DNA from: Candidatus Sulfobium sp.
GTDB lineage: Bacteria; Nitrospirota; Thermodesulfovibrionia; Thermodesulfovibrionales; UBA6898
Direction: 5' to 3'
Assembly (NCBI GenBank): GCA_037380845.1
Contig: JARRRI010000004.1
Location: 1-52,243, forward strand
DNA: 52,243 nucleotides
Shown: piece by piece, positions 16,233 through 34,402 of the stretch
Position numbering within the stretch: the stretch's first letter is position 1
How the letters are laid out: each line of letters starts with the position of its first letter
The notes under the pieces: generated by a model
What the model was told of the DNA's origin: nothing
What the model saw: the letters and a program-made list of their open reading frames with translations, nothing else
Database searches by the model: none
Made by a program: the position numbers and the translations under genes

Positions 16233-17627
16233 TCAGCGGCCGGAGGGATGCTTCTGCTTCGCCGAGATATTGTATTTCTTCATGAGAGCATGGAAATTGG
16301 GCCTCTGCATTCCCACGTCGGAAGCCGCCTTCGATATATTCCACGCGTTTCTCTTCAGGGCCTCCATTAAAAAGGATTTCTCTATGTTTTCGACGGACTT
16401 GAGCCTCAGGTCTTTCTTCTTTTCCTTCAGTTCGTCCACGGTCTTCGGCACCTCTTCCGCTACCGGTATTTCAAGGGCAGAAAAATGCTCCGGCCGGAGG
16501 GTCTTGCCCTGACACATGATTATGGCGCGCTGTATGCTGTTTTCGAGCTGCCTCGCATTGCCCGGCCAGTCGAAAAGGAAAAGCATCCTCATCGTTTCCG
16601 CGCTTATATGAGTCACGCTCTTCCCAATCTCCCGGCTGTATTTCCGGAGAAAATGGTTGGCAAGGGCGGGGATGTCCTCCCTCCTTTCCCGAAGTGGCGG
16701 GATATGGATCGGAAAGATGTTCAGTCTGTAAAAGAAATCCTCCCTGAAGGTTCCATCCCTTACCATCGTCTTCAGATCCTTGTTCGTAGCCGACACAAAC
16801 CTGACGTCGGCCTGGACGGTCTTTTTTTCGCCGACCGGCCTGAACTCCTTCTCCTGCAGTACTCTAAGCAGCTTTGCCTGTGTCGACAGGGCGAGATTGC
16901 CTATCTCGTCAAAGAAGATGGTCCCTCCGCCCGCCATTTCCAGGAGTCCTTTTTTCTTTTCGAAGGCGCCCGTGAAGGCCCCTTTGGCATGTCCGAACAA
17001 TTCCGACTCGATAAGTGTTTCGGGGATGGCATTGCAGTCTACAATTATGAAGGGCTGTTCCTTCCTCGGGCTGTTGAAATGGATGGCCTTGGCGACAAGC
17101 TCTTTTCCGGTACCGCTTTCACCGGTGATGAGCACCGTGCTTCCAGTTACCGCCACCTTCGCTATGAGCTGAAAAATCCTCTGCATGGCCTGGGACACAC
17201 CGACGATGTTCCCAAGCTCATAGTGAGAAGGTACCATCTCTCTGCCGGCCGCCGAAAGACCCTTCCTCTCCATTGCCCGCTTTACGAGTGACAGCAGGTC
17301 GCCCGGGCTGAAGGGCTTTTCTATATAATCGAAGACGCCGGCTTTCATCGCCCTCACAGCGGTCTGTACCGTCCCGTACCCTGTCATGATGATCACTTCG
17401 GTTTCTGGCCACTTTTCCTTGATCCTTACCAGGATCTCTATGCCGTCGATGTCAGGCATCTTAAGATCGGTGAGAACAAGGTCAAAGGGAGAAGAGTCGA
17501 GTGCCTGCAGTCCCTCATTGCCGGATTTAGCGGTTCTTATCCCGTAGCCTTCCGGCCTGAGTATTCGTTCACAGCTGATCCTTATGATGTCTTCGTCATC
17601 GATGATAAGGATGCTGCCCCTGTTCAT
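16233..17627 (-). CDS. sigma54-dependent response regulator (REC-AAA+-Fis HTH)
   Basis: TDLKMP, GESGTGKE, GAFTGA, WPGNARQLEN; alternative start at 17645. Confidence 0.95.
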   Translation of the reverse strand: MNRGSILIIDDEDIIRISCERILRPEGYGIRTAKSGNEGLQALDSSPFDLVLTDLKMPDIDGIEILVRIKEKWPETEVIIMTGYGTVQTAVRAMKAGVFDYIEKPFSPGDLLSLVKRAMERKGLSAAGREMVPSHYELGNIVGVSQAMQRIFQLIAKVAVTGSTVLITGESGTGKELVAKAIHFNSPRKEQPFIIVDCNAIPETLIESELFGHAKGAFTGAFEKKKGLLEMAGGGTIFFDEIGNLALSTQAKLLRVLQEKEFRPVGEKKTVQADVRFVSATNKDLKTMVRDGTFREDFFYRLNIFPIHIPPLRERREDIPALANHFLRKYSREIGKSVTHISAETMRMLFLFDWPGNARQLENSIQRAIIMCQGKTLRPEHFSALEIPVAEEVPKTVDELKEKKKDLRLKSVENIEKSFLMEALKRNAWNISKAASDVGMQRPNFHALMKKYNISAKQKHPSGR

Positions 17628-17805
17628 GACGTCGGATTCCCCCATGGGTTATTCAGGGCCTGTGCCCAAAAGGACCCCGTTATCGTGGTTTTCAGCCTGT
17701 CCGGACCCCGGCAAATCGACCTTTATTATGTCATTGTCCGGTCAAGTCGTGGAATCACAGCCGACTTAACCTTAAAGTTGCATAAATTCTCTCATTCACG
17801 CAACT

Positions 17806-18177
17806 TTAAGGTCTATTGTCCAGCGCGGCGGCAACGGCGGAGGTCAGGGCGTCCGGAGTGAAGGGCTTTTCTATGTAATCGAAGGCCCCGAGTTTGATGG
17901 ACTTCACCGCCGTGTCGACCGTCTGGTAGCCGGTAATGACGATTACCTGCGTTTGAGGCCACCTTTCCTTGATTGTTCGGAGGACCGTTATGCCGTCCAT
18001 GTCGGGCATCTTGAGATCGGTGAGTACCAGGTCGAACGGTTCCTCTTCCAGCATCCTGATACCGTCGAAGGCGTTTGCCGCCAGTCTTACCTCGTACCCC
18101 TCCGGCGAGAGGACCCTCTTACAGCTGGTCCTTACGATACTTTCGTCATCGATTACCAGAAGTTTGCCCTTGTTCAT
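17806..18177 (-). CDS. Single-domain response regulator
   Basis: VIDDE, TDLKMP, EKPF. Confidence 0.93.
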   Translation of the reverse strand: MNKGKLLVIDDESIVRTSCKRVLSPEGYEVRLAANAFDGIRMLEEEPFDLVLTDLKMPDMDGITVLRTIKERWPQTQVIVITGYQTVDTAVKSIKLGAFDYIEKPFTPDALTSAVAAALDNRP

Positions 18178-19754
18178 ATCACATCCGCATAAGCCGGCAG
18201 CCTGACAAGAAAACTGGTCCCCTCACCTGGCCAGGTCTTTACGTCAATTTTACCACCATGCTCCCTGATTATGCCGTGGCTGACGGCGAGCCCCAGGCCG
18301 GTGCCCTTGCCGACCGGTTTTGTGGTGAAGAAAGGCTCGAATATCTTCGCCAAATTCTCATCGCTGATACCCGGACCGGTGTCGTGGAACTCGATTTCAA
18401 CATAGTCCATGTCGTCTTCGTTTACGTTCCTCGTTGAAACGGTGATAGTGCCCTTGCCTTCGATCGCATCCGCTGCGTTCATTATCATGTTAAGGAAGAC
18501 CTGCTGCAACTGGGACGCATCGGCCTTCACCCTTGAGAGGGCGGGGTCGAGGTCGGTGATAAGCTTAATGTCGAAGAAGTCGGCCTTGTTCCTGACGATG
18601 TTGAGGGAATGGGAAAGGACGTCGTTAATGTTCACCGGCGCCTTCTCGGCAGCCGAAGCCCTCGCGAAGCCCAGCAGTCCCTTTATGATATTCGAGCACC
18701 GGTTCGCCTGCTCGATGATCACTTCCACATCCTCCCTCTCTTCGGTGTCCTGAGGCAGGCGCTTCAGGAGGAGATGCCCGAAGGTGACGATCCCCGTCAG
18801 CGGACTGTTTATCTCATGTGCGACGCCGGCAGCCATCCTTCCGAGAGAGGCCAGCTTCTCCGAATGGATGAGCTGGGCCTGCGCCATCCTTATAGCCTCT
18901 GTCTTTTCCTGCACTTTCTTTTCGAGGGTGTTGCCCCATTCGACCAGCTCGTTCTTTGCGGCTTTAAGGTCTGATGTCATTTCATTGAACGCCGAGGCAA
19001 GTTCGCCCATCTCGTCTTTGGTGTTGATCTCGACATGGTAATCGAGGTCTCCGTCGGCCACCTTCTGCATGCCCTGCGCAAGCATGCTCACCGGGGTAGA
19101 GACAAAATTCCACAGGATCGTGCAAAGAACGATCGAGATGATAAAAAGGAATATGAGGATATAAACGGTAATGGCGATGCCCTGCTCCTTCATGCTCTTG
19201 TCCATAAAGGCGAGGGAAAGGTTTGCCTGTACGAGCCCCAGGATCTTCTGAGATTTCCTGTGCACGTGGCACGCCGAGGTGTAACAGGCCGGCTCGTTGA
19301 AGATCGGCTGCACGATGGTCAGGACCCTGGCATTACTGTCTGTCTTGTGTATGAACCAGGTGGGTGTTGACTGCGACTGGCCAGTGGCGGAATGACAGCT
19401 GAGACAGAGGGGGGACTTCATGTCTATAACGGTACCGATCTCCTTTTTCGAAGATGCATAGGCGATCTTGCCGCCGGTGTCGAACACCCGGACGTCCATC
19501 ACTCCTTCTGCGGAACCGATCGCCTCGATTGTCTGCTGCGTAAGGAGTTTCTGGAAGGTGAGCATTCCGTAACGGGTGCTCTTTTTTACGGAATCGACGA
19601 AAGAGGAGCCGTATTTAACCGAATACTCTACCAGTTCCTGCTCCTGGTGTCTGAAGAGGAAATACCAGAATATGGAGCTGCCGACTACCATCAGGGTGCC
19701 GATGGTAAGAATGAGCTTGCCGGTCAGCGAATGGAAGGATTTCTTAACAAGCAT
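18174..19754 (-). CDS. HAMP sensor histidine kinase with haem c-type motifs in the periplasmic domain
   Basis: TM-periplasmic-TM-HAMP layout; CLSCH and CYTSACH; VAHEINSPL, N box, DTGPG, GTGLGL. Confidence 0.92.
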   Translation of the reverse strand: MLVKKSFHSLTGKLILTIGTLMVVGSSIFWYFLFRHQEQELVEYSVKYGSSFVDSVKKSTRYGMLTFQKLLTQQTIEAIGSAEGVMDVRVFDTGGKIAYASSKKEIGTVIDMKSPLCLSCHSATGQSQSTPTWFIHKTDSNARVLTIVQPIFNEPACYTSACHVHRKSQKILGLVQANLSLAFMDKSMKEQGIAITVYILIFLFIISIVLCTILWNFVSTPVSMLAQGMQKVADGDLDYHVEINTKDEMGELASAFNEMTSDLKAAKNELVEWGNTLEKKVQEKTEAIRMAQAQLIHSEKLASLGRMAAGVAHEINSPLTGIVTFGHLLLKRLPQDTEEREDVEVIIEQANRCSNIIKGLLGFARASAAEKAPVNINDVLSHSLNIVRNKADFFDIKLITDLDPALSRVKADASQLQQVFLNMIMNAADAIEGKGTITVSTRNVNEDDMDYVEIEFHDTGPGISDENLAKIFEPFFTTKPVGKGTGLGLAVSHGIIREHGGKIDVKTWPGEGTSFLVRLPAYADVI

Positions 19755-19878: not shown

Positions 19879-20250
19879 ATGCCCGGAGCCTTTATGCCGT
19901 CAGCATATTTGCCGATACTGATCTTCCTGATGGTCGCAACGGCCTTTGGAATCGGCGCACTCTTAATCGGCGAGCTATTCAGAATAAAAAGACCCTATTC
20001 CGAGAAATTGATGCCGTATGAGTCGGGCAATCCCCCGGTGGGAGAGCCGCGGCAGAGATTTTCCGTAAAGTTCTATATCATAGCCATGCTCTTTGTGGTG
20101 TTCGATGTGGAAGCGATTTTCCTCTATCCGTGGGCGGTGACGTTTGACAGGATAGGGCTGTTCGCTTTTGTCGAAATGATAATCTTTATAGTGATACTCC
20201 TCGTAGGATATATTTATGCGTGGAAAAAGGAGGCTTTCGTATGGGATTGA
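19879..20250 (+). CDS. nuoA: NADH-quinone oxidoreductase subunit A
   Basis: [19 protein letters not shown]. Confidence 0.96.
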
Positions 20251-20768
20251 CAGTCGGCACTTCTTCACCTGCTCTTGTCGAAGTGGACGAAAGGACAAAG
20301 GTCCTTGCGCCCAACGTCATCATCACTACCATCGACAAGATCATCAACTGGGGAAGAAGTTCGTCGTTATGGCCTATGACCTTCGGCCTTGCCTGATGCG
20401 CCATTGAAATGATGACGACGGGATCGTCACACTATGATCTGGACAGGATGGGCATCATCTTCAGGGGCTCACCGAGGCAGGCGGACTTCATGATAGTTGC
20501 AGGCACTGTGACCAAGAAGATGTCTGAGATCGTCCGGAGGGTCTACGACCAGATGCCGGAGCCGAGGTATGTAGTATCCATGGGCAGTTGCGCATGCAGC
20601 GGAGGGATATTCAATACTTACAGCACGGTACAGGGATGCGACACCTTTGTGCCTGTGGATATTTACGTGCCGGGATGCCCCCCCAGGCCGGAGGCCCTTA
20701 TGGAAGGCATCATCAAGCTCCAGGAAAAAATAAGGGCGGAGCACTTCAGATGGAGCCGGTGGAGATGA
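20241..20768 (+). CDS. nuoB: NADH-quinone oxidoreductase subunit B with an in-frame TGA (candidate selenocysteine) at codon 52
   Basis: ATG at 20241 after AAGGAGG; reads ...[22 protein letters not shown]...SPRQAD...SMGSCA...PGCPP. TGA at 20394-20396 replaces the first Cys of FGLACCAIEM. Confidence 0.92.
20413..20429 (+). promoter_or_regulatory. Candidate bacterial SECIS hairpin
   Basis: TGACGA-CGGGA-TCGTCA: 6-bp stem with a G-containing loop starting 23 nt after the UGA. Confidence 0.6.
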
Positions 20769-20780
20769 TTCTGAAAGAAC

Positions 20781-20812
20781 GGATCCCCGGTTGAAACCTC
20801 GGGAATGACGGC
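20781..20812. repeat. REP-like palindrome between nuoB and nuoC
   Basis: GGATCCCCGGTTGAAACCTCGGGAATGACGGC. Confidence 0.7.
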
Positions 20813-20862
20813 TACTGGAAGGACTTTCCGCGAAGCAGGCGATTTGAAATCGTAACAGGGAT

Positions 20863-21405
20863 ATGGAACCTTTAGAGATTGCAGAAAATATAAGAGAAAA
20901 ATTCCCGGAGGAAGTCCTGGATGTCAGGGAGTTCAGGGGACAGGTTTCGGTCACCCTCAGGAAAGACAGGATTCTGGACGTCTGCCGGCACCTTCACGAT
21001 TCCCCGGACCTTTTCTGCGATTATCTGGTAGACGTGTGTGGTGTCGATTATCTCGGCAGGAAGGAAAAGAGGTTTGAGGTCGTTTACCATCTCTATTCCA
21101 TCAGGCACAGGCATTCGGTAAGACTCAAGGCGGAGGTGCCTGAACAGGACGCCGAGATAGATTCCGTCACCTCCATATGGGCCGGCGCAAACTGGCATGA
21201 GAGGGAGGCCTTCGATCTCTACGGCATAACTTTCAAAGGTCATCCCGACCACAGAAGAATACTCCTGCCTGAGGACTGGGAAGGTCATCCCCTGAGAAAG
21301 GATTATCCGGTAAAAGGGCCCGAGAAGGAATGGTCCGGCTTCCAGGACGTGCTTGACAGGGCGAAGAGATTTCACGAATTTGAATGGCACGAGCCGGGTG
21401 AGTAA
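20863..21405 (+). CDS. nuoC: NADH-quinone oxidoreductase subunit C
   Basis: [23 protein letters not shown]. Confidence 0.96.
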
Positions 21406-21409
21406 GGAT

Positions 21410-22609
21410 ATGGAAAACACGGAAACCGGTGAAAGGACGGTAGAGACAAAAGACCTGCAGATCAGCATGGGTCCCCAGCACCCTGCGACCCACGGTGTTC
21501 TGAGACTGGTCCTTGACCTGGACGGCGAGACCGTGAAGAAATGCACGCCCTACGTGGGGTATCTCCACAGGGGGGTGGAAAAACTTGGCGAAAACAGGAC
21601 ATACCTGGCCGCCCTGCCACTGACCGACCGTCTGGATTACATATCGTCGATGAACAACAACGTCGGATATGTTAACGCCGTCGAAAAACTCTTCGGTATC
21701 GAAGCCCCTGAGCGGGCCAAATTCATCAGGACCATAGTCGCCGAGATGGGCAGGATATCGAGTCACATCATCTGGCTCGGCACCCATGTCCTAGATATCG
21801 GCGCCACCACGCCCTTTCTCTACGCCTTCCGCGAAAGGGAACGCATACTGGACCTTTTCGAGATGCTATGCGGCGCCCGTCTCACCGTCAGTTATCCGAG
21901 AATAGGCGGGGTCAAGAACGACATTTCACAGGAATTCATGGACGAGCTTTACGATTTCGTTCTCGATTTCCCTTCCAGGATTGATGACTATGAGACGCTC
22001 GTTACCGAAAACAGGATCTGGAAGGAGCGGACAGTGGGAATCGGCGTGATTTCCGCGGAAGAGGCTGTAAACTGGGGCCTCACCGGAGGCACACTGAGGG
22101 GCTCGGGCGTCGACTACGATGTCCGGAAATATGCACCGTATGATGCTTACGGCCAGGTTGACTTCGATGTGCCGGTCGGCAGGAACGGTGACTGCTACGA
22201 CCGCTACATCGTCAGGATGCAGGAGATGAGGCAGGCCAACAGGATCATCCAGCAGTGCATAGAAAAGCTGCCGACGGGACCCGTAATGGCTGATGCCCCG
22301 AAATTTACCCTCCCTTCCAAGGAGATGATCCTGAAGGATATGGAGCATCTGATACACCAGTTCGTGCTTATCAGCAAAGGGCCGGCGGCTCCTGAAGGAG
22401 AGGTCTATATGGGCTCCGAAGTGCCCAAGGGGGAGCTGGGTTTCTATTTTATCAGCGACGGAACCGGCAAGCCTTACAGGATGAGGGTAAGGGCCCCGTC
22501 TTTCGTCCACGCCTCGGTGCTTCCCAGGCTGTGCGAAGGAGGGCTGGTGGCGGACGTTATCGCAAACATAGGCACCATCGACATCGTTCTCGGTGAGTGC
22601 GACCGCTAG
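21410..22609 (+). CDS. nuoD: NADH-quinone oxidoreductase subunit D
   Basis: [37 protein letters not shown]. Confidence 0.97.
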
Positions 22610-22625
22610 GAGTACCGGGAGTATA

Positions 22626-23090
22626 ATGTTCAGCGAAGAGGCGATAAAGGAACTTGACGGCATAAAGGCGAAATATCCGACGGCGCGGGCGGCGCTTCTT
22701 CCGGCTATATACGTCGCCCAGCGGGAGTTCGGGTGGCTCTCGGCCGACGCTTACGAGGCCGTGGCGGATATACTGGGGGTGCCCAGGGCGATCGCACGGG
22801 GAGTCGGTACGTTCTATGCCATGTACAAGAACATGCCGGCGGGAAGGAATGTCGTTCAGCTTTGCACAAACGTCTCCTGCATGATATTGGGAGCGGAGAA
22901 GCTGGTCGACTTTCTGAAGAACAAATACGGCCTCGAACCCGGCGGAACTACTCCGGATAAGAGATTTTCCCTGGTAATAATGGAATGCATAGGAGCCTGC
23001 GGAACTGCGCCTGCGATGCTTGTGAACGACGATTTTTACGAAAATCTGACCGAAAATTCTATAGAAGGGATTTTGGGGAAATATAAATAG
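22626..23090 (+). CDS. nuoE: NADH-quinone oxidoreductase subunit E
   Basis: LCTNVSC, ECIGACGTAP. Confidence 0.95.
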   Translation: MFSEEAIKELDGIKAKYPTARAALLPAIYVAQREFGWLSADAYEAVADILGVPRAIARGVGTFYAMYKNMPAGRNVVQLCTNVSCMILGAEKLVDFLKNKYGLEPGGTTPDKRFSLVIMECIGACGTAPAMLVNDDFYENLTENSIEGILGKYK

Positions 23091-23094
23091 CATC

Positions 23095-24357
23095 ATGGAA
23101 AAAGTCCTCTTAAAAAACATAGACAATCCTGATTCGGCAGACATCGGCCAGTATCTGAAAAGCGGCGGCTATCAGAGCCTTCCGAAGGCCCTCACCATGG
23201 AACCGAAAGACATTATAGAGGAAGTAAAGAAATCCGGTCTTCGGGGGAGGGGAGGAGCCGGTTTCCCGGTCGCCATGAAATGGACGTTCGCGTCCGCCGA
23301 CCCCAAGTTTCCGAAATACCTTCTCTGCAATGCAGACGAGGGGGAGCCCGGAACGTTCAAGGACAGGCCGATTCTCGAAAAGAATCCTCACCTGCTCATC
23401 GAAGGAATGGCCATATCAGGGCACGCGCTGAAGGCGGAATACGGTTACATCTACCTGAGGGGAGAGTACCCGGCCGCAAAGCATATACTGGAGGCGGCAA
23501 TCGGACAGGCCTACGATAAAGGCTTTCTCGGAGACGATATCCTTGGGAAAGGAATAAGGTTCCACCTTGCCGTCCACCAGGGCGCGGGCGCCTACATATG
23601 CGGGGAGGAGACCGCCCTCATCGAGTCTCTCGAAGGCGACAAGGGACAGCCCAGGATCAAGCCCCCCTTCCCAGTCAATGTAGGCGTGTTTTCAAAGCCT
23701 ACGGTAGTAAACAACGTAGAGACGCTTTCCAACCTGCCGTACGTCCTGGAAATAGGCGGGGAGGCATATTCGAAGATAGGCAGTCCCGACTGCCCGGGTC
23801 CGAAGATCTACTGCGTGAGCGGACACGTGGAAAGACCCGGTGTGTATGAACTGCCCATGGGGACGAACCTGCGGGACATCATTTATACCCACTGCGGGGG
23901 CATAAGGGGCGGCAGACAGCTCAAGGCTGTCATCCCCGGCGGGATTTCGACACCCGTTCTACCTCCCGACAAGATAGACTGCCCGATGGATTTTGTGAAT
24001 ATGCCCAAACACGGCAGTATGCTCGGTTCGGGTGCGGTGATCGTCATGGACGAGAGTGTCTGCCTGGTAAAGGTCTGCTACAGGGCGCTCAGGTTTTTCG
24101 AGCACGAGTCGTGCGGCAAGTGCACGCCGTGCCGCGAGGGCACCGGATGGTTGAGAAAGATCCTCGGCAGGATCGAAAACGGTGAAGGGATGGACGGAGA
24201 CATGGATCTCCTGCTGTCCGTTTCGGGAAACATGCTGGGCAAGACGTTCTGTCCCCTCGGGGACGGCGCCGCTTCAGTGGTGCAGAACTTCATAAAACAT
24301 TTCAGGCCGGAATTCGAGGAGCACCTCAGAACCGGTGCCTGCACGGTCAAGGGCTGA
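23095..24357 (+). CDS. nuoF: NADH-quinone oxidoreductase subunit F
   Basis: GRGGAGF, ADEGEPGTFKDR, CGEETAL, ESCGKCTPCREG; 420 aa with no extra ferredoxin domains. Confidence 0.96.
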   Translation: MEKVLLKNIDNPDSADIGQYLKSGGYQSLPKALTMEPKDIIEEVKKSGLRGRGGAGFPVAMKWTFASADPKFPKYLLCNADEGEPGTFKDRPILEKNPHLLIEGMAISGHALKAEYGYIYLRGEYPAAKHILEAAIGQAYDKGFLGDDILGKGIRFHLAVHQGAGAYICGEETALIESLEGDKGQPRIKPPFPVNVGVFSKPTVVNNVETLSNLPYVLEIGGEAYSKIGSPDCPGPKIYCVSGHVERPGVYELPMGTNLRDIIYTHCGGIRGGRQLKAVIPGGISTPVLPPDKIDCPMDFVNMPKHGSMLGSGAVIVMDESVCLVKVCYRALRFFEHESCGKCTPCREGTGWLRKILGRIENGEGMDGDMDLLLSVSGNMLGKTFCPLGDGAASVVQNFIKHFRPEFEEHLRTGACTVKG

Positions 24358-24358
24358 T

Positions 24359-26935
24359 ATGATTACGGTCACCATAAACGGCAGAGAGATTAAACTGGAG
24401 AAACCCGTGACGGTGCTCCAGGCCGCAAGGTCCGCGGGTATAAAGATACCCACCCTCTGCTACCATGAGCAACTCGAGAAATACGGGGGATGCAGGCTCT
24501 GTCTGGTCGAGGTCGAGAAGATGCCCAGGCTCCAGACTGCCTGCACACTCATGACGACCGACGGCATGGCGGTGCGGACGGAGACCGAGGCCATAGCCGG
24601 CGTGAGGAGAGGGATACTCGAATTCCTGCTGATAAACCATCCCCTCGATTGTCCATACTGCGACAAGGCTGGCGAGTGCGAACTCCAGGACCTGGTGGAA
24701 AAATACGGTCCCACCGCAAGTAGGTTCAGGGAGATGAAGAGGAAGGTCCCGGAGAGCCTGGAAGACCCCGTCCTGGTGAGGAACATGGAAAGATGCATCG
24801 TCTGTACGAGGTGCGTGAGGATGTGCGAAGGGGTTCAGGGCGCATCGGCCATCTCGGTTATCAGCAGGGGCGGACACTCACACATAGAGCCTTTCTCGGG
24901 CGGGAAGTTCGAATGCGAATACTGCGGAAACTGCGTCTCGGTTTGTCCGGTGGGGGCCATCATGTCGCGACTTCACAGGCACAGCTACAGGCCCTGGCAG
25001 GTGGTGAGCGAGACGGAGACCATCTGCCCCTATTGCGGCGTTGGATGCACAATGGTCGTCCAGGTGAGGGACGACGTCATCAAGAGAGTGGTGCCCAGAA
25101 TCGGAACGCCGGTGAACAACGGTCTCCTGTGTTCGCGCGGCAGGTTCGGATATGAGTTTGTCGGGAGCGGCGAAAGACTGACCGGTCCCCTTATAAGGAA
25201 GAACGGTGTGCTCGAAGAGTCTACCTGGGAGGAGGCGATCGGCCTGGTCGCCAACAAGCTTTCGGAGATACGGGACAAATTCGGCGGAGGAGCTGTGGCC
25301 GGGATTGCGTCCCCGAGGTGCACCAACGAGGACAACTATGTTTTCCAGAAGTTCATGAGGGTGACACTCGGCACAAACAACATCGACAGCACGGCCAGAC
25401 TGGGTTTCGCGGGCGCCCAGAGTTTCATCGAAAACATATTCGGTCAAGGGGCTACGGCCAACCTGATCCCGGGTCTTTCGAACTCCGATGCGGTCTTGGT
25501 GATCGGAGGCGACCCTACCGCGGTGAATCCCATACTGGGCCTCCAGGTGAGGTCCTGTGCGCGCAAGGGAGGAACAATACTCACCGTGGGGCATGTGAAG
25601 GGGCTCAGGCATTACAGCCCTGTGGAAGTCAAACCATCAGTGAACACCGAGGATGTTCTGCTTGAAGGTATTGTGTCTGCCCTGAAGGACAAGAAGGGGC
25701 TTCCGGGTTCACATGCCGCCCTGGAAGAAAAAATAAAAATCATCGCCACTTCTCCGCAGGATGTCACAAAAGCCTGCGGCATTCGGGAAGAACACCTCCT
25801 CCGGTTTGTGGAAGTCCTTGCGTCTTCCGCCACGCCTTCGGTGCTGATCGGCAAGGAACTCTTGCAGAGCGCAGGCGCAAGCTACAGGCTTCTTCTCATA
25901 TGCGCCCTGAATTATCTCGTAAACGGAAGGATTTACCTTCTTTCGGAGCGTGCCAACGAACAGGGTCTTTTGGATGTCGGCTGTGTTCCCGATCTCCTGC
26001 CGGGATGCAGGCCGGTGGGCTATGAGGAGTTCAGGAAGAGATACGAATCTCTCTGGAAGAAGGCGCTGCCTGAGAAGCCGGGGCTTTCACTCTTCGGCAT
26101 GATCGATGCCGCCAGGGCAGGAGATCTGAAGTCCATATACATAATGGGAGAGAACCTGGTATATAACGTGCCGGATTCTTCGGCTGTGGAGGCTGCGCTG
26201 AAGAAAGTGGATTTTGTTGTCGTCCAGGACATCTTTCTCACCGAGACCGCGAAACTGGCTGACGTTGTCCTTCCGGCTTTGAGTTGGGGAGAGAAAGAAG
26301 GGACATTCACGAACATGGAAAGAAGGATACAGCGGCTGAGGAAGTCGGTCCACAGACAGGGGCTGGAGGACTGGCGGATTATCTCCGAGATCTCACAGAA
26401 TATGGCGGTGAAGATGAACTATGCGGACGCCGAAGGAGTGTTCGCCGAGATGTCCAGGGTTTCACCCCTTCACCGTGATCTTGCATATGAAGATCTTGAG
26501 GGTGGTAAGGCTATTTATCCTTATAAAGGTGAACCTCTCCGCGGGGTTGCGGCAGAGATCAGGACGGACCGGGGAACAGGCATGGAGGCCGCCGGGAAAT
26601 TCTTTCTCAGGATCGAGAGGCCTCTGTTTCATTCGGGTACGCTGAGCAGGAGGGCGAAGGCCCTGGTGAACATATATGCCGGCGCGGTGGCCAGGATCAG
26701 TCCGGAAGCGGCTGGTTCCCTCTCTGTCAAGGACGGCGACGTCTTGAGGATATCCACGGAAGCGGGATCTCTGGAACTGCCTGTTTCTGTCGACCAGTCC
26801 GTTGACGGCCGGTGTATAATGCTTACGAACAATTTCGAGGGAAAGGGCGCCTTCGGCCTGATCAGGTATGCTCTGGACCCTGTTATTGAGGCTCCCGCGC
26901 TTGACGGTGTTGAAGTCCGCGTTGAGAAAGGGTGA
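24359..26935 (+). CDS. nuoG: NADH-quinone oxidoreductase subunit G (long molybdopterin-fold type)
   Basis: GGCRLCLVE, HPLDCPYCDKAGEC, CIVCTRC, CEYCGNC, CPYCGVGC; lies between nuoF and nuoH. Confidence 0.92.
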   Translation: MITVTINGREIKLEKPVTVLQAARSAGIKIPTLCYHEQLEKYGGCRLCLVEVEKMPRLQTACTLMTTDGMAVRTETEAIAGVRRGILEFLLINHPLDCPYCDKAGECELQDLVEKYGPTASRFREMKRKVPESLEDPVLVRNMERCIVCTRCVRMCEGVQGASAISVISRGGHSHIEPFSGGKFECEYCGNCVSVCPVGAIMSRLHRHSYRPWQVVSETETICPYCGVGCTMVVQVRDDVIKRVVPRIGTPVNNGLLCSRGRFGYEFVGSGERLTGPLIRKNGVLEESTWEEAIGLVANKLSEIRDKFGGGAVAGIASPRCTNEDNYVFQKFMRVTLGTNNIDSTARLGFAGAQSFIENIFGQGATANLIPGLSNSDAVLVIGGDPTAVNPILGLQVRSCARKGGTILTVGHVKGLRHYSPVEVKPSVNTEDVLLEGIVSALKDKKGLPGSHAALEEKIKIIATSPQDVTKACGIREEHLLRFVEVLASSATPSVLIGKELLQSAGASYRLLLICALNYLVNGRIYLLSERANEQGLLDVGCVPDLLPGCRPVGYEEFRKRYESLWKKALPEKPGLSLFGMIDAARAGDLKSIYIMGENLVYNVPDSSAVEAALKKVDFVVVQDIFLTETAKLADVVLPALSWGEKEGTFTNMERRIQRLRKSVHRQGLEDWRIISEISQNMAVKMNYADAEGVFAEMSRVSPLHRDLAYEDLEGGKAIYPYKGEPLRGVAAEIRTDRGTGMEAAGKFFLRIERPLFHSGTLSRRAKALVNIYAGAVARISPEAAGSLSVKDGDVLRISTEAGSLELPVSVDQSVDGRCIMLTNNFEGKGAFGLIRYALDPVIEAPALDGVEVRVEKG

Positions 26936-27020
26936 AGATCAGACATATGGTCAAGGTGCAGGATAAAAATGATGTCAGAAGAAGGTATGAACGGATGGTG
27001 CTCAGCCGGCTGGTGAAATT

Positions 27021-28079
27021 ATGAACCTGATGGGCGCTTTTGAGACGATAGTGACACCCGGCTCCATCGATATCGCGGTGAGGATATTGATCATACTGAT
27101 AGAAATCGCCATTGTGGTTGGGATAGCCCTTCTCCACGTGGCTTACGCAACATACTGGGAGCGCAAGGTCATCGGACATATGCAGGTGAGGCTCGGGCCG
27201 ATAGAAGTAGGCTGGCACGGCCTTCTTCAGCCCTTTGCAGACGGGATCAAGCTTTTCTTCAAGGAAGACATCATCCCGGCGAACTCCGACAAGCCGCTCT
27301 TTTATCTGGCACCGGTAATATTCTTTGTCTCGGCGCTGTCTTCACTTTCGGTGATCCCCTTCTTTAACGGGTTTGTCATCGCCAATATCAATATAGGACT
27401 TCTCTTTCTGTTTGCGATGTCCTCCCTCGGTGCTTACGGCATAGTCCTTTCCGGCTGGGCGTCGAATTCAAAATATGCCTTTCTGGGGGGGCTTCGTTCG
27501 GCTTCCCAGGTGATCAGCTACGAAATCGCGATGGGACTGAGCCTTGTCGGCGTAATGATGATGGCAGGCTCCCTCAACCTTTCCGACATAGTCAAGGCCC
27601 AGCACAATTATCCGACCGGCATGTATGCCGTTCCCCAGATCCTGGGTTTCTTTGTGTTCATCGCCGCGGCCTTTGCAGAGACGAACAGGCTGCCCTTCGA
27701 CCTCCCGGAGGCAGAGAGCGAGCTGGTGGCAGGCTACTTCACCGAATACAGCGGGTTCAGGTTCGCCCTTTTCTTTTTGGGCGAATACACGGGAATGATC
27801 GTGATGTCTTCAATAGCGGCCGTCTGCTTCCTGGGGGGGTGGACGATTCCGCGCTTTGTAACTGACGTGCTGCCTTTCCTGTCCGTGGTGCCGGGGATTG
27901 TGTGGTTCCTGCTGAAGGTATATGCCTTCATGTTCCTTTATTACTGGGTCAGGGCGACCCTGCCCAGGTACCGTTATGATCAGCTCATGTCGATCGGCTG
28001 GAAGATACTTATACCTCTTGCCCTGCTGAACATAGCGATCACGGGGTTTATAAAAGTCATGGTGGAAGGGTTGCTATGA
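27021..28079 (+). CDS. nuoH: NADH-quinone oxidoreductase subunit H
   Basis: ERKVIGHMQVRLGP, ETNRLPFDLPEAESELVAG. Confidence 0.97.
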   Translation: MNLMGAFETIVTPGSIDIAVRILIILIEIAIVVGIALLHVAYATYWERKVIGHMQVRLGPIEVGWHGLLQPFADGIKLFFKEDIIPANSDKPLFYLAPVIFFVSALSSLSVIPFFNGFVIANINIGLLFLFAMSSLGAYGIVLSGWASNSKYAFLGGLRSASQVISYEIAMGLSLVGVMMMAGSLNLSDIVKAQHNYPTGMYAVPQILGFFVFIAAAFAETNRLPFDLPEAESELVAGYFTEYSGFRFALFFLGEYTGMIVMSSIAAVCFLGGWTIPRFVTDVLPFLSVVPGIVWFLLKVYAFMFLYYWVRATLPRYRYDQLMSIGWKILIPLALLNIAITGFIKVMVEGLL

Positions 28080-28624
28080 GCACCGAAAAACTTATACGGA
28101 AGATATTTTTTGTCGAGATACTCAAGGGGATGGCGCTGACCCTTCGGACCCTTTTTACACATCCGGTCACGCGGCGTTATCCGAAGGTCAGGAGACCGGT
28201 CCAGCCGGGTTTCAGGGGTCTTCACGCACTGGCGAAGAACGAAGAAGGGAAGATGAAGTGCGTGGGGTGCGGGCTCTGCGGCGCCTACTGCCCCTCGAAG
28301 TGTATATATATTTATACCTCGGAGGGAGAGGACCATACCAAGGTCGTCGACAGGTACGAGATAGAAGTGCTGAGGTGCATATACTGCGGGTTCTGTGTCG
28401 AGGCCTGTCCATTCGGGGCGATTACTCTGAGCGAGCATTACGAGTACTCCGATTATTCAAGGGAGCCCTTTTATATGACTAAAGAGAAGCTCCTTTCGAA
28501 CTGGGACAAGTACTTTGCCGGCGAGAAGGGCAGAAGATATTTCAGGGATTTCTGGCGGCCCAAGACGGTGGACTTCGCCGGCGCCGACGAGCAGGCGACT
28601 TTTGCGAAAGTCAGAAGAAAGTAA
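28076..28624 (+). CDS. nuoI: NADH-quinone oxidoreductase subunit I
   Basis: CVGCGLCGAYCP, CIYCGFCVEACP. Confidence 0.96.
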   Translation: MSTEKLIRKIFFVEILKGMALTLRTLFTHPVTRRYPKVRRPVQPGFRGLHALAKNEEGKMKCVGCGLCGAYCPSKCIYIYTSEGEDHTKVVDRYEIEVLRCIYCGFCVEACPFGAITLSEHYEYSDYSREPFYMTKEKLLSNWDKYFAGEKGRRYFRDFWRPKTVDFAGADEQATFAKVRRK

Positions 28625-28632
28625 GGAGAGGC

Positions 28633-28783
28633 GAACATGCTGAAAAAGTCCATAAATTTGTCAGGTATTGATTCCGACTCACGTAAGCGCAGTTTCAGAC
28701 CTGTGTGGTTTTACTCAAGGCGCCTGTCACCGCAGCCGGGGGCTGCGCGGAGCCTCAGGTTATGGACCCTTTTCAGCACATTC
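28633..28783. mobile_element. MITE-like element with terminal inverted repeats, between nuoI and nuoJ
   Basis: Left end GAACATGCTGAAAAAGTCCATAA; right end reverse-complemented GAATGTGCTGAAAAGGGTCCATAA; no transposase. Confidence 0.6.
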
Positions 28784-28838
28784 TCCTCTCTTTTCCGGGC
28801 TGGATATGCAACTGAAGGGTATGATTACGGGAGGCAAC

Positions 28839-29354
28839 ATGCTGCCTAGGCTGTTCTTCGGATATTTTGCCGCTGCCATAACGATTATTTCTATCCTCGT
28901 AGTTACGCGAAGAAACCCGGTCCACAGCGTGATATGGATGCTCCTGCTTTTTTTCCATATCGCCGGCATGTACCTCTTCCTGGACGCTGAGTTCATAGCT
29001 GCGATACAAGTGATCGTCTATGCGGGTGCGGTCCTGGTCCTTTTCCTGTTCGTGGTTCTGCTTTTGAACCTGAGGGAGGAACTCCGGACGGAGAGGTTCA
29101 TAGGTTCATGGCCCGCAGGGGTTCTCATTGCTGCCGCTTTATTTGCAGGTATTGCCGCGGCCCTGAGGTCCTTCGTTCCGGGACCGGCAGGGATTTATAC
29201 GATCAACTTTGTGCAGAGAGTGACTGACACCAAGGCACTGGGACAACTGCTGTTTACACGGTTTCTCCTGCCCTTCGAAGTGGTGTCGGTAGTCCTCCTT
29301 GTTGCCGTCATAGGCGCGATAGTACTGGCGAAGAAAGGGGTGAAGGTCAGATGA
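28839..29354 (+). CDS. nuoJ: NADH-quinone oxidoreductase subunit J
   Basis: [33 protein letters not shown] at 28839 after GGAGG. Confidence 0.95.
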
Positions 29355-29659
29355 CGGCCGTACCGTTAAACTGGTATCTGATGCTCAGCGCCGTTGTTTT
29401 CAGTATAGGCATCTTCGGCTTTCTGACCAGGAGAAACATCATTATAATGTTTCTGTCCATCGAGCTTATGCTGAACGGAGTCAATATAAGTCTCATCGCC
29501 TTCAGCCATTATCTGCAGGACCTGAGAGGGCAGGTCTTTGCTTTTTTTGTGATCGCCGTTGCGGCAGCCGAGGCGGCCATAGGGCTGGCGATCATCATGG
29601 CCCTTTTCAGAAATAAATCTACGGCTCATGTCGATGAGATGAACGAGATGAAAGGATAA
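29351..29659 (+). CDS. nuoK: NADH-quinone oxidoreductase subunit K
   Basis: [18 protein letters not shown]. Confidence 0.96.
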
Positions 29660-29691
29660 ATCCGTAAAGTTATGTGTAAAGGGATAAGATT

Positions 29692-31434
29692 ATGAATAGT
29701 TACCTGCTGATACCCTTTTTGCCTCTTGCAGCCTTTGTGATCAATATCCTGCTGGGCAGGAAATTCATCAGGGGAAAGGCACACCTGGTCGCGATAGCGG
29801 CGGTTGCCGCTTCATGGGTCGTTTCGGTTGTGACACTCATCGATGTAATGTCCGGAAGGACCCTCGACAAAGACCTCTACACATGGATAGTCTCGGGCCA
29901 CTTCACGGTATCGGTAGGGTTCCTTATCGACCAGCTCACGGCGGTGATGCTCATCGTCGTGACTACCTGCAGTACACTCATACACATTTACTCCGTGGGG
30001 TACATGCACGGCGACGACGGGTTCTATCGCTTCTTCTCCTACCTGAGCCTTTTCACCTTCTGCATGCTCATGCTCGTCATGTCAAATAATTTCCTGCAAC
30101 TCTACTTCGGCTGGGAGGGTGTGGGCCTCTGTTCCTATTTCCTGATCGGATATTATTTCAGGAAGAAGTCGGCCTCCGACGCCGGGAAGAAGGCCTTTAT
30201 CGTCAACAGGTTCGGCGACTTCGGTTTCGGCCTGGGAATCATAGTGATATTCCTCACTTTCGGTACAGTTTTTTACGCTCCGGTCTTCGGCCACGCAGGA
30301 GATATCGCGGGCAGGACAATAAATTTTCTCGGCTATGACATCAGCCTGCCTACGCTGATCGCACTCCTTCTTTTCTGCGGTTCAGTCGGCAAATCCGCAC
30401 AGCTTCCGCTGCATGTCTGGCTGCCCGACGCGATGGAGGGCCCGACACCGGTCAGCGCCCTGATCCATGCGGCGACCATGGTGACTGCCGGGGTATTCCT
30501 GGTGGCCAGGTGCCACGCCATATTCGATCTCTCGGCTACGGCCCTTTCGGTTGTGGCCGTCGTCGGAGCATTAACGTGCCTCTTCGCCGCCACAATCGCC
30601 ATTGTTCAGAACGACATAAAGAGGATCATCGCCTATTCGACCATAAGCCAGCTGGGTTACATGTTCATTGCCTGCGGTGTGGGCGCATATGGCGCCGGCA
30701 TATTCCACCTTTATACGCATGCCTTTTTCAAGGCCCTTCTCTTCCTGTGCGCGGGCAGTGTGATGCACGCCATGGCGGGAGAGCTTGACATGCGGAAGAT
30801 GGGGGGTCTTAAGAAATATATGCCCGTAACCTATATGACCATGCTCCTGGCTTCGCTCAGCATCTCGGGCGTTCCGGGATTTGCGGGCTTCTTCAGCAAG
30901 GACGAGATCCTGTGGCTCGCCTATTCGGGTGCGAGCCCGGTCGGGAAATTCGTGTGGCTTATCGGGACCATAGTTGTCTTCCTTACGGCATTCTACTCGT
31001 TCCGGCTTATCTTTGTGACCTTCCATGGAAAGTTCCGTGGTACCCACGAGCAGGAGCATCACCTCCATGAATCGCCGAAGGTTATGACCATTCCGCTCAT
31101 GCTCCTCTGCGTAGGGGCCGTCGCGGCGGGGTGGGTGGGCATACCTCACCTGCTAGAGCAGTTCAGACTGGTCTACAAATTCCTCTTTAATAAATACTAT
31201 ATTGACGAAATATACAGTTTCTTCATCGTGCGGCCGACCATATGGGCTGCGGGCAACATACTTATAGGAATTACGGACACGAAGATCATAGAGGCGGTAG
31301 TCAACGGCGTTCCAGCGGCCATAGGCGGCGTCAGCCGGAAGCTGAGAAGGGTGCAGACCGGTTTTTTGCAAAATTACGCGGCTATAATGGCCACTGGCGC
31401 TCTGATTATTGTGGCCCTGATGCTCCTGAGGTGA
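29692..31434 (+). CDS. nuoL: NADH-quinone oxidoreductase subunit L (apparently shortened internally near the C-terminus)
   Basis: GWEGVGLCSYFLIG, GKSAQLPLHVWLPDAMEGPTPVSALIHAATMV. Confidence 0.95.
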   Translation: MNSYLLIPFLPLAAFVINILLGRKFIRGKAHLVAIAAVAASWVVSVVTLIDVMSGRTLDKDLYTWIVSGHFTVSVGFLIDQLTAVMLIVVTTCSTLIHIYSVGYMHGDDGFYRFFSYLSLFTFCMLMLVMSNNFLQLYFGWEGVGLCSYFLIGYYFRKKSASDAGKKAFIVNRFGDFGFGLGIIVIFLTFGTVFYAPVFGHAGDIAGRTINFLGYDISLPTLIALLLFCGSVGKSAQLPLHVWLPDAMEGPTPVSALIHAATMVTAGVFLVARCHAIFDLSATALSVVAVVGALTCLFAATIAIVQNDIKRIIAYSTISQLGYMFIACGVGAYGAGIFHLYTHAFFKALLFLCAGSVMHAMAGELDMRKMGGLKKYMPVTYMTMLLASLSISGVPGFAGFFSKDEILWLAYSGASPVGKFVWLIGTIVVFLTAFYSFRLIFVTFHGKFRGTHEQEHHLHESPKVMTIPLMLLCVGAVAAGWVGIPHLLEQFRLVYKFLFNKYYIDEIYSFFIVRPTIWAAGNILIGITDTKIIEAVVNGVPAAIGGVSRKLRRVQTGFLQNYAAIMATGALIIVALMLLR

Positions 31435-31441
31435 ATTTGAC

Positions 31442-32968
31442 ATGGTGAACGGCACAGGTTTTCCCATACTAAGCACAGTGATCTTTCTGCCTGTTGCGGG
31501 TGCGGCCCTGCTTCTTCTGGTCCGGAGAGATCGCGAAACACTCATAAAGTGGATCGCCCTTGCCGTAAGCCTCCTGGATTTCTTCATTTCCATTCCCCTC
31601 TTTACCGGCTTTGACAAGACATCTCATCTCATGCAGTTTGTCGAAAGGCACGCGTGGATACCGGCCTGGAACATCAACTACGCACTGGGTTTGGATGGCA
31701 TAAGCATACTGTTTGTGCTGCTGTCCACCATCGTCATAGTCCTTAGCGTCCTGATATCATGGAACTCCGTAAAGACGAAGACGAAGGAGTTTTACATCTC
31801 GATCCTCCTGATGGAGGCTGCGATGATAGGGGTCTTCTGCTCCCTGGATTTCTTCCTATTCTACATTTTCTGGGAGGCCATGCTTATACCCATGTATCTC
31901 CTGATCGGCGTCTGGGGCGGACCCAACCGGGTGTATGCGGCGGTCAAGTTCTTCCTCTACACGCTGGTGGGAAGTGTCCTGATGCTGGTCGGCATAATCG
32001 TTCTTTACTTCTATTCCGGCAGGACCTTCGACATCGTCACACTCTCTACCCTGTCGTATCCTTACCGGATGCAGTTCTGGCTTTTCTGGGCCTTCTTCGC
32101 GGCTTTCGCGGTGAAGGTCCCTATGTTCCCTGTGCACACGTGGCTTCCCGACGCCCACACGGAGGCACCGACAGCGGGCAGCGTAATACTGGCGGCGGTC
32201 CTTATCAAGATGGGGGCCTATGGTTTTCTCAGGTTTTCGCTTCCCATTCTGCCTGATGCGTCGAGGGCCATGACACCCGTCATGATGACGCTTTCGGTAA
32301 TCGCCATCATTTACGGGGGAGTGATCTGTCTTGCGCAGACCGATATGAAGCGACTCATCGCCTACAGTTCGGTCAGTCATATGGGTTTCGTGACACTGGG
32401 GATATTTGCCCTGAACATACAGGGCATGGAGGGCGGCATTCTCCAGATGATCAACCACGGTGTCGTCACCGGGGCGCTCTTCCTCAGCGTGGGTGTTATC
32501 TATGACAGGACCCATACCAGGCAGATCGCCGATTACGGCGGTGTCGCCACCGTTATGCCCATATATGCCTCGCTCTTTATTGTGTTTACCCTGGCATCTA
32601 TCGGTTTTCCCTCCACAAACGGGTTTGTGGGCGAATTCCTGATAATCCTGGGCGGATTTACCGCAAGCCAGTGGGCCGGTGTGCTTGCCGCTACCGGCGT
32701 GATTATCGGTGCCGGCTATATGCTATGGCTCTATCAGCGGGTCTTTTTCATGGAGACAAACGAAAAGGTCTCGGGCCTCGCCGATGTCAACGGAAGGGAA
32801 TTGCTCACCCTGGTCCCTATGATAATACTTATATTCTGGATAGGGGTGCATCCCGACACGTTCCTCGGTTTCATGCATGAGTCGGTGCACCACCTGCTTG
32901 AGCGTGTCAATACCGGCGGCCTTGCCGGGGCGAAAGTCGGCAAAAATATTGCGGAGATCATGAAATGA
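31442..32968 (+). CDS. nuoM: NADH-quinone oxidoreductase subunit M
   Basis: FWEAMLIPMY, AVKVPMFPVHTWLPDAHTEAP. Confidence 0.96.
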   Translation: MVNGTGFPILSTVIFLPVAGAALLLLVRRDRETLIKWIALAVSLLDFFISIPLFTGFDKTSHLMQFVERHAWIPAWNINYALGLDGISILFVLLSTIVIVLSVLISWNSVKTKTKEFYISILLMEAAMIGVFCSLDFFLFYIFWEAMLIPMYLLIGVWGGPNRVYAAVKFFLYTLVGSVLMLVGIIVLYFYSGRTFDIVTLSTLSYPYRMQFWLFWAFFAAFAVKVPMFPVHTWLPDAHTEAPTAGSVILAAVLIKMGAYGFLRFSLPILPDASRAMTPVMMTLSVIAIIYGGVICLAQTDMKRLIAYSSVSHMGFVTLGIFALNIQGMEGGILQMINHGVVTGALFLSVGVIYDRTHTRQIADYGGVATVMPIYASLFIVFTLASIGFPSTNGFVGEFLIILGGFTASQWAGVLAATGVIIGAGYMLWLYQRVFFMETNEKVSGLADVNGRELLTLVPMIILIFWIGVHPDTFLGFMHESVHHLLERVNTGGLAGAKVGKNIAEIMK

Positions 32969-32983
32969 GAAAAGGGGAAGTCT

Positions 32984-34402
32984 GTGATGCCTGATTTGCG
33001 ACCTTTGATGCCGGAGATAATAATGACCGTCCTGGCCCTGTTTATCCTTCTTTCGGACCTTGTTGTCCGGAAAAAGGAGAACATCGGCTTCCTCACCATG
33101 ATCTGTGCTGCAGTGGTGACTTACAGCCTCGCCGGCTCCATGGGTACCGCCTTCAACGGCATGTTCATAGCCGACGGCTACGGGCTGTTTTTCAAGCTGA
33201 TCTTCCTGCTCAATGTAGTGCTCACCGTCCTGATATCGGTGCGGTATATAGAGATAGAAAGAGTGAACCTGGGCGAATATTACGGCCTTCTTCTCTTCTC
33301 AACGCTGGGCATGATGATAATGGCGTCTGCCGGTGACCTCATCGTACTCTATCTGGGGCTGGAACTCATGGCTCTGAGCACCTATATCCTGGCGGGCTTC
33401 ATGCGACACGATGTTAAGTCCAACGAGGCGGCCATGAAATATTTCCTGCTTGGTGCTTTCGCATCAGCCTTCCTTCTTTACGGGACCTCCATGGTATACG
33501 GGCTCACCGGCACCACGGATCTCAGGGGCATTTCTTCCTATATCCTTAATCACGGACTTACGGGCAACCCGGCACTTACCCTCAGCATGATGCTTATGGC
33601 CGTGGCCTTCTCTTTCAAGATAGCTGCGGTACCCTTTCACATGTGGGCCCCCGACGCCTATGAAGGAGCGCCGACATCGATAACGGCCTTTATGTCAGTG
33701 GGCCCCAAGGCGGCTGGCTTCGCGGTGCTGGGGAGGGTTTTCCTTACCGCCTTCGGATCATTGAGGGTCGAATGGACGGCTGTACTCGTCCCGATCGCCA
33801 TCCTGACCATGGCCGTGGGCAACATAGTTGCCATATCACAGACGAATATCAAAAGGATGCTGGCCTATTCCTCAATTGCACACGTAGGATATATCCTCCT
33901 TGGCATCATAGCCGGAACACATGACGGTCTTGCCAGTGTCATGAATTATCTGGTGATCTATGCGTTTATGAACGTAGGAGCCTTTGCGGTCATTATCATG
34001 CTGAGGACTGAGGGCTTCAAAGGTGATAATATTTCCGATTACGAGGGGCTTTCCAGGACCCATCCCCTTGCGGCCGCAATGATGCTGGTGTTCATGTTTT
34101 CACTTACCGGAATCCCTCCGACAGCCGGCTTCATGGGTAAGTTCTATCTCTTCATGAGCGCGATAAATGCCGGCTACACCTGGCTGGTGATCATAGCCGT
34201 GCTTTTCAGCGCGATATCCGCGTACTTCTACCTGAGGGTTGTGATGTACATGTATATGAGGGAGCCGAAGGAGACGGTGGAGCTTGCAAAATCCCCGGCC
34301 CTCGGACTGGCGCTTGGGGTAACCGTGACCGCCGTCATTTTCATAGGGGTTCTTCCTTCAGCGTTCATCAACTTTGCGCGCGTAGCGATAGCTGGATTTT
34401 AG
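32984..34402 (+). CDS. nuoN: NADH-quinone oxidoreductase subunit N
   Basis: EAAMKYF, FKIAAVPFHMWAPDAYEGAP. Confidence 0.96.
   Translation: MMPDLRPLMPEIIMTVLALFILLSDLVVRKKENIGFLTMICAAVVTYSLAGSMGTAFNGMFIADGYGLFFKLIFLLNVVLTVLISVRYIEIERVNLGEYYGLLLFSTLGMMIMASAGDLIVLYLGLELMALSTYILAGFMRHDVKSNEAAMKYFLLGAFASAFLLYGTSMVYGLTGTTDLRGISSYILNHGLTGNPALTLSMMLMAVAFSFKIAAVPFHMWAPDAYEGAPTSITAFMSVGPKAAGFAVLGRVFLTAFGSLRVEWTAVLVPIAILTMAVGNIVAISQTNIKRMLAYSSIAHVGYILLGIIAGTHDGLASVMNYLVIYAFMNVGAFAVIIMLRTEGFKGDNISDYEGLSRTHPLAAAMMLVFMFSLTGIPPTAGFMGKFYLFMSAINAGYTWLVIIAVLFSAISAYFYLRVVMYMYMREPKETVELAKSPALGLALGVTVTAVIFIGVLPSAFINFARVAIAGF

Follow-up and report, generated by a model that had tools for sequence, protein, structure and literature searches.

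A conserved in-frame UGA at a tandem-ligand position of cluster N2 points to a selenoprotein form of the complex I subunit NuoB

Is a stop codon inside nuoB of Candidatus Sulfobium a lesion in the gene for a core subunit of respiratory complex I, or is it read as an amino acid? The window analyzed here, a stretch of DNA of 52,243 nucleotides, contains a complete nuo operon of 14 genes in which nuoB is encoded between nuoA and nuoC (Table 1). Translation agrees with what the original prediction had read from the letters of this locus: the list of open reading frames splits nuoB into two pieces (20220-20396 and 20409-20768), one frame nevertheless runs from the ATG at 20241 through 175 codons to a terminal TGA at 20766-20768, and its single internal in-frame TGA falls at residue 52, exactly on the first Cys of the FGLA-C-CAIEM(M) motif. 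Both halves of the gene were said to be otherwise intact, and they are: the frame is open, and the read-through protein scores 110.2 bits against Pfam PF01058 (cut-off 27), 247.7 bits against NCBIfam TIGR01957 (cut-off 142.7) and 258.5 bits against NF005012 (cut-off 116), while phmmer matches it to the solved NDUFS7/Nqo6/NuoB chains with E-values of 6e-65 to 6e-54. The protein resembles canonical Cys-type NuoB/Nqo6/NDUFS7 (PSST, NUKM) in these three family assignments, in its nuoA-N setting and in the FGLA-x-CAIEM, MGSC and PGCPP motifs; it differs from them in that all characterized members have Cys at the first tandem ligand, where the window has a UGA followed by a constrained hairpin. The internal stop is almost certainly a conserved selenocysteine (Sec) codon, and we consider it highly probable that nuoB is an intact selenoprotein gene, with a UGA decoded by SelB and Sec52 placed on cluster N2 of a 14-subunit complex I.

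Table 1. Features of the nuoB locus and of the selenoprotein genes elsewhere in the genome (positions in the window unless stated otherwise)
Feature	Position	Strand	Basis
nuoA-N operon, complete, 14 genes	19879..34402	+	Pfam for each gene
AGGAGG ribosome-binding site, 6 nt upstream of ATG 20241	20229..20234	+	direct sequence reading
nuoB, read through one internal UGA	20241..20768	+	frame, Pfam/NCBIfam, phmmer
UGA, predicted Sec codon (residue 52), replacing the first tandem Cys of N2	20394..20396	+	relatives, alignment, contigs
Cys53, second tandem N2 ligand	20397..20399	+	alignment
SECIS-type hairpin inside the coding sequence	20410..20431	+	sequence, folding, comparison with relatives
Cys117 (MGSC), third N2 ligand by homology	20589..20591	+	alignment
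Cys146 (PGCPP), fourth N2 ligand by homology	20676..20678	+	alignment
selD and two Fdh-like selenoprotein genes	outside the window: G000 C20:72243, C29:36972, C13:49478		

The placement of the UGA at an N2 ligand, as originally proposed, follows from alignment to solved structures. NuoB residues 23-167 align by phmmer to Yarrowia NUKM 56-201, residues 23-169 to Thermus Nqo6 16-163, and residues 21-168 to E. coli NuoB 32-180. U52 is thereby equivalent to C85 of Yarrowia NUKM (NDUFS7), C45 of Thermus and C63 of E. coli, and C53 to Yarrowia C86. The MGSC and PGCPP motifs, which we take to hold further N2 ligands, contribute Cys117 and Cys146. All four N2 ligand positions are present in the window (U52, C53, C117 and C146), the first of them as Sec and not Cys, and Sec52 is a predicted Fe ligand of N2. 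In PMC8042128, C85 and C86 of the Yarrowia enzyme are described as strained tandem ligands of N2, C85 as the more mobile of the pair and as lying near the quinone-ligating Tyr144 of NDUFS2, and N2 as the direct electron donor to ubiquinone.

The same codon was followed through two samples of genomes. An order sample, drawn by kinship and blind to the trait, comprised 61 genomes (that of the window, further ones from its genus and family, and members of 12 additional families of the order); close nuoB orthologues occur in 58 of them and make up 60 rows. An in-frame TGA is found in 22 of the 60 rows, always at this codon, and the other 38 rows have TGC or TGT, which is the TGA/Cys alternation that had been anticipated for relatives. 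A few distant NuoB-like paralogues (in G023, G041 and G028) were also flagged with one TGA; these are ordinary terminal stops of Ech/Mbh-type small subunits. G041, whose genome is a single contig, has a Sec-form nuoB. In addition, prokaryotes were scanned for F-G-L-[AS]-TGA-C-x-x-E-M with each species represented by a single genome; at least 118 loci were returned, and every one listed is an otherwise open NuoB frame. Syntrophia and Thermodesulfobacteria are among the groups that contribute to the matches listed. The two samples share genomes (L139 and L262, for instance, are on contigs of equal length), so that the count to be quoted is at least 118 species and not 140, and related genomes within it are not independent. 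Grouped into phyla by record titles, the matches listed include 57 loci from Nitrospirota, 27 from Thermodesulfobacteriota, 19 titled 'Deltaproteobacteria bacterium' (16 of which map to Myxococcota), five labelled Proteobacteria, three from Chloroflexota (two of them from one isolate), two from Ca. Tharpellota, one from Verrucomicrobiota, and four with no phylum named. A control scan for TGA at the second Cys, which is equally one base change away, returned five loci, consisting of three nuoB genes and two chance matches. The disparity between at least 118 and three nuoB genes argues that random nonsense mutations or errors are not the cause. The three second-Cys genes (FGLAC-TGA-AIEMM) come from MAGs titled Nitrospirae (L251), Ca. 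Binatus (L252) and Ca. Tectomicrobia (L253), and they may be C-U variants rather than errors; L251 retains the window's type of hairpin, and L253 has a hairpin of -12.7 kcal/mol.

How the two forms are related was read from a tree of the 60 NuoB proteins (unrooted, 160 columns, with the Sec column and the hairpin-encoded residues left out). At least 11 changes between Sec and Cys are needed on this tree, and at least four are forced by well-supported branches alone. An identical hairpin sequence is found in Sec forms of both deep branches, and one close relative (L029, G022:C68) has TGT at the Sec codon with the hairpin still letter-perfect, which looks like a recent conversion from Sec to Cys and would suit this relative as a natural partner for comparison. 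From the hairpin shared by both deep branches and the state of this relative, we infer that the ancestor had Sec and that Cys arose from it repeatedly through changes of one base. Within the order Thermodesulfovibrionales the Sec form thus seems to be old, on a tree that, being unrooted, does not itself give the direction of change. Sec would have been lost repeatedly through single TGA-to-TGY changes, with the hairpin decaying afterwards.

The genome encodes a full set of genes for Sec insertion: selA, selB, selD and tRNA-Sec, on whose presence the original prediction depended, are all over their cut-offs. selA (620 bits) and selB (332 bits) are adjacent on contig 22, selD is itself of the Sec type, its in-frame TGA having the C-A-G-U surroundings usual for this gene, and the tRNA-Sec (73 bits) has the anticodon TCA. 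The genome also has two Fdh-like molybdopterin enzyme genes (..CAR[YL]-U-HS..), each with one in-frame TGA. A hairpin of 6-7 bp follows each of these TGAs, and its 5-nt loop (GGUCU in one gene, GGGCU in the other) begins 21 nt from the U. In the order sample, 60 of the 61 genomes have a selA match over the cut-off, and the exception (G010) has a Cys-form nuoB. It was also found in four of five Sec-NuoB genomes picked from other groups. The fifth, a 1.6-Mb MAG titled Ca. Udaeobacter (L204/G061), has a Sec-form nuoB, but no selA was found in this genome, its selB-like match is truncated by a contig end, and its tRNA-Sec reaches 44.2 bits where the gathering score is 47; it is either an incomplete genome or one holding a mis-binned contig. 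This MAG provides the sole Verrucomicrobiota-titled Sec-form locus among the matches listed.

Downstream of the UGA, a TGACGA/TCGTCA stem with a CGGGA loop had been described, and it is found at 20413-20429, with the stem halves at 20413-20418 and 20424-20429 and the loop at 20419-20423. The pairs T20410-A20431 and G20411-C20430 extend this core, with A20412 bulged, and the loop starts 25 nt from the U of the UGA (22 nt after the UGA). Taken alone, the hairpin of the window is not beyond chance: the 57-nt fold of 20394-20450 has a z of 0.20 and a minimum-energy structure without the hairpin's pairing, which is adopted by windows of 27-39 nt only, at -6.5 kcal/mol. Its significance comes from comparison. 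Within the genome, the hairpin resembles the fdhF-type, SelB-dependent SECIS elements of the two Fdh-like genes in lying inside the coding sequence, in its 6-7-bp stem and in its 5-nt G-rich loop, but differs from them in the start of the loop (+25 versus +21), with no sequence similarity between the two and no match to an Rfam model. A covariance scan of 20340-20500 with Rfam at E-values up to 10 found no SECIS family and only two chance snoRNA matches far below their gathering scores; this blank is uninformative because bacterial SECIS elements are highly variable in sequence, as the peptide classes described below illustrate. The criteria of Zhang and Gladyshev (2005) reportedly require a stem-loop immediately 3' of the UGA whose apical loop contains a G and lies 16-37 nt from that codon, and the nuoB hairpin has all three of these features.

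Comparison was made across 140 Sec-form loci, namely the pattern-scan matches listed plus the order sample, whose genomes overlap. The loop of the strongest hairpin starts 23-28 nt from the U of the UGA in 137 of them. When the Sec forms are grouped by the peptide that follows the UGA, they fall into 24 classes that all have a hairpin at the same offset, built with different stems. The stem is made by codon choice: Thr-Thr...Ser-Ser is written ACG ACG..UCG UCA in the window's class, and Ala-Ala...Ser-Ser is written GCU GCU..AGC AGC in another. Codons alternate in pairs between stems, as in GUC..GCG versus GUU..GCA and AGU..AGU versus AGU..AGC. In the window's own peptide class (42-47 loci), the stem codons are identical in all Sec forms, with variation at the wobble base of the loop only, whereas the same codons vary freely in Cys forms. 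The loops are G-rich or begin with AGU or GGU, the counts being 44 for CGGGA, 19 for AGUUC, 18 for CGUGUAU and 10 for AGGU.

Three measures quantify this constraint. First, synonymous differences at codons 7-12 after the UGA amount to 0.049 among Sec forms within classes, against 0.444 in their own flanks, and to 0.611 against 0.505 in 16 Cys forms; synonymous change at the hairpin codons is thus reduced about 9-fold in the Sec forms. Codon variability pooled across classes hid this signal because each class has a different stem. Second, a criterion set after the Sec sequences had been viewed (at least six pairs, a loop start of 23-28, and GG or GU at the loop) picks out 72 of 77 distinct Sec windows; among Cys windows it picks out six of 37 from the order and 23 of 72 from other phyla. 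Third, 27 of 28 Sec peptide classes fold with a better energy than their synonymous recodings do (mean z of -1.61, versus -0.72 for Cys forms). This last test is modest for each sequence (median p of 0.086 among Sec windows, one third of which reach 0.05 or less), the hairpin of the MMAVYASHN class shows no gain in stability over recodings (z of -0.21), and the codon-variability test is the stronger of the two. Judged by sequence comparison, the hairpin is under selection, and the expectation that relatives with TGA would conserve it holds in the form of constrained codons 7-12 and alternative paired stems.

Two readings would accept the UGA as genuine and dispense with Sec or with a full-length product. 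One is that the UGA is translated as another residue, through a genome-wide reading as Trp, Gly or Cys or through read-through that is free of SelB. The frame is indeed open once the TGA is taken as a residue, and the identity of that residue as Sec is a prediction from sequence. We regard this reading as very improbable on four grounds. First, TGA is the terminal stop in 8 of the 14 nuo genes, including nuoB, and the 14.5 kb of the operon has no internal TGA apart from the one at 20394, from which it follows that TGA has no general sense reading in this genome. Second, the codon aligns with Cys and never with Trp or Gly. Third, the genome has the complete Sec machinery. Fourth, the constraint downstream of the codon matches the genome's own Fdh SECIS elements in place and form.

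The other reading, to which we give equally little weight, is that translation stops at the UGA and restarts at the ATG ATG at 20409, yielding NuoB in two pieces, with the hairpin serving termination-reinitiation or attenuation. A 119-residue open reading frame does begin at ATG 20409, and Met-Met follows the site in most forms. This Met-Met is, however, part of the universal CCAIEMM and is present in Cys forms too; no ribosome-binding site precedes 20409, and a break at this point would deprive NuoB of one N2 ligand and interrupt the strained tandem loop. The type of loop is that of the Fdh SECIS elements, and the distribution of selA across the order, with the one genome that lacks it carrying a Cys form, also speaks against a two-piece protein.

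The TGA is also seen in contigs of public metagenome runs. The stretch or part of it is contained in 19 public runs (marsh, salt-marsh and mangrove metagenomes, none recorded as RNA), and contigs were compared from four of these runs, belonging to three studies; one run is flagged as a possible source of the DNA, and three carry no such flag. An assembly error would have shown as TGC or TGT at 20394-20396, but the contigs of all four runs have TGA there without an alternative letter, despite variable sites nearby, and one contig with 27 differences over 338 bases retains it. The summed contig depth of one run rises from about 20 to 270-610 across 20370-20423. This 10- to 30-fold jump is confined to about 55 bases, which are all that short pieces of many other contigs match, and implies that the segment of motif, UGA and hairpin is near letter-identical in co-resident organisms. 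In a collection of 5.8 billion proteins, the best full-length matches reach at most 87% identity, and all eight of the top ones fetched are CC forms; a relative's Sec-form nuoB, once translated, is 94% identical. An origin of the TGA in faulty sequencing or assembly, or a reading of nuoB as a pseudogene, is barely credible: the split open reading frames and the want of a database form above 87% identity can be cited for it, and are outweighed by the agreement of the contigs, by the recurrence of TGA at this codon in at least 118 species genomes with frames otherwise intact as against three nuoB genes at the neighboring, equally reachable Cys, and by conservation at the protein level in both halves of nuoB.

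With the contigs, the Sec machinery, and the conserved UGA and constrained hairpin all in its favor, the candidate selenoprotein of the original prediction is well supported, and a mechanism can be proposed from the anatomy of the gene and the comparison with relatives. SelB carrying Sec-tRNA(Sec) would bind the hairpin and deliver Sec at codon 52, giving a full-length NuoB of 175 residues. Sec52 together with Cys53, Cys117 and Cys146 would then hold the terminal [4Fe-4S] cluster N2 of the 14-subunit complex I, with one Fe-Se bond beside the quinone site. A selenolate is more acidic and more polarizable than a thiolate and forms a longer bond. Selenium at N2 could relax the strain in the tandem pair, alter the potential of the cluster or its pH dependence, or protect against oxidation. 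Although speculative, an altered potential, protonation or robustness of the strained tandem-ligand site is most likely, rather than a neutral exchange; the more specific suggestion of an N2 potential shifted by Sec to suit menaquinone or reverse electron flow goes beyond the evidence. We see an even chance that many anaerobes have a selenolate-ligated N2 whose Fe-Se bond has been selected for retuning the potential, protonation or stability of the cluster.

The original prediction further held that Sec ligation would make complex I dependent on selenium. This would apply to the complex I of the Sec-type operon, read as proposed here, and does not extend to the genome as a whole, which has a second complete nuo operon outside the window (G000 contig C7, L294:6535-18588), with a Cys-type NuoB, nuoE/F/G and a fused NuoCD. 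With that operon, the genome need not rely on selenium for complex I activity in general. The Cys-type NuoB is about 50% identical to the Sec-type protein, and the two operons may encode a pair of isoenzymes in which the second supplies the Cys version. With the same query, a second NuoB was found in 4 Sec-form and 14 Cys-form genomes of the order sample; among the 22 Sec-form rows, the four that have one all belong to the window's own genus.

The Sec form of NuoB can be set beside several known systems. Group 4 hydrogenases are the closest kin of complex I. The nearest published case found is that of [NiFeSe] hydrogenases, including Group 4 variants predicted in September 2026 (PMC13582414). 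These enzymes resemble the present one in that Sec replaces a metal-ligating Cys within the hydrogenase/complex I superfamily and that Sec and Cys forms alternate among relatives. They differ from it in that Sec lies in the NuoD-homologous large subunit and binds Ni, whereas the window has it in the small-subunit homologue as a predicted [4Fe-4S] ligand; the paper mentions neither 'NuoB' nor 'Nuo' nor 'complex I'. Other Sec proteins are alike in having Sec at predicted cluster-ligand positions, in some of them beside a Cys (CU), but they have unrelated folds, none belongs to respiratory complex I, and in NuoB the order is U-C within the strained N2 pair. An inventory of 119 prokaryotic selenoprotein families and subfamilies from May 2026 (Table 1 of PMC13188914) does not include NuoB or PF01058, and its only NADH:quinone entry is NqrE (PF02508) of the sodium-pumping NQR. 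A 2022 review (PMC9312934) contains no 'nuo', and 'The algal selenoproteomes' contains no NDUFS7, NADH or complex I. Searches of PMC Creative Commons full texts and bioRxiv found no paper that describes Sec in NuoB or in NDUFS7. The Sec form of this core respiratory subunit is real and widespread and apparently uncataloged, and its decoding is presumably that of ordinary bacterial selenoproteins.

Electrons leave complex I for quinone from N2, the final carrier, which lies right above the quinone site, and a coupling of redox chemistry to conformational change through its unusual adjacent Cys ligands has been debated for a long time. A natural Cys-to-Sec swap in this pair offers a ready-made Sec/Cys comparison between close relatives and a 77Se spectroscopic handle; if the selenolate-ligated N2 is true, it would be a natural, isosteric 77Se probe of the debated role of N2 and its tandem Cys residues. 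Electron delivery to quinone in such organisms would then depend on selenium, and the supply of this element would bear on respiration in anaerobes that are common in sediment and groundwater. The finding would add a core bioenergetic enzyme to lists of selenoproteins that otherwise hold mostly thiol oxidoreductases. It also has a practical side in that gene callers split the Sec-type nuoB, and complex I may consequently be scored as broken in such genomes.

Two further features of the locus were recorded. Directly upstream of the nuo operon and divergent from it are the genes for a sigma-54 response regulator (16233-17645, minus strand) and a HAMP histidine kinase (18174-19754, minus strand), which may be regulators of the operon. 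The NuoB proteins of the clade read MGSCACSGG (window 20589-20597, residues 117-119) where solved mitochondrial homologues read MGSCANGGG, and the additional Cys119 and Cys133 (20637-20639) are present in Sec and Cys forms alike.
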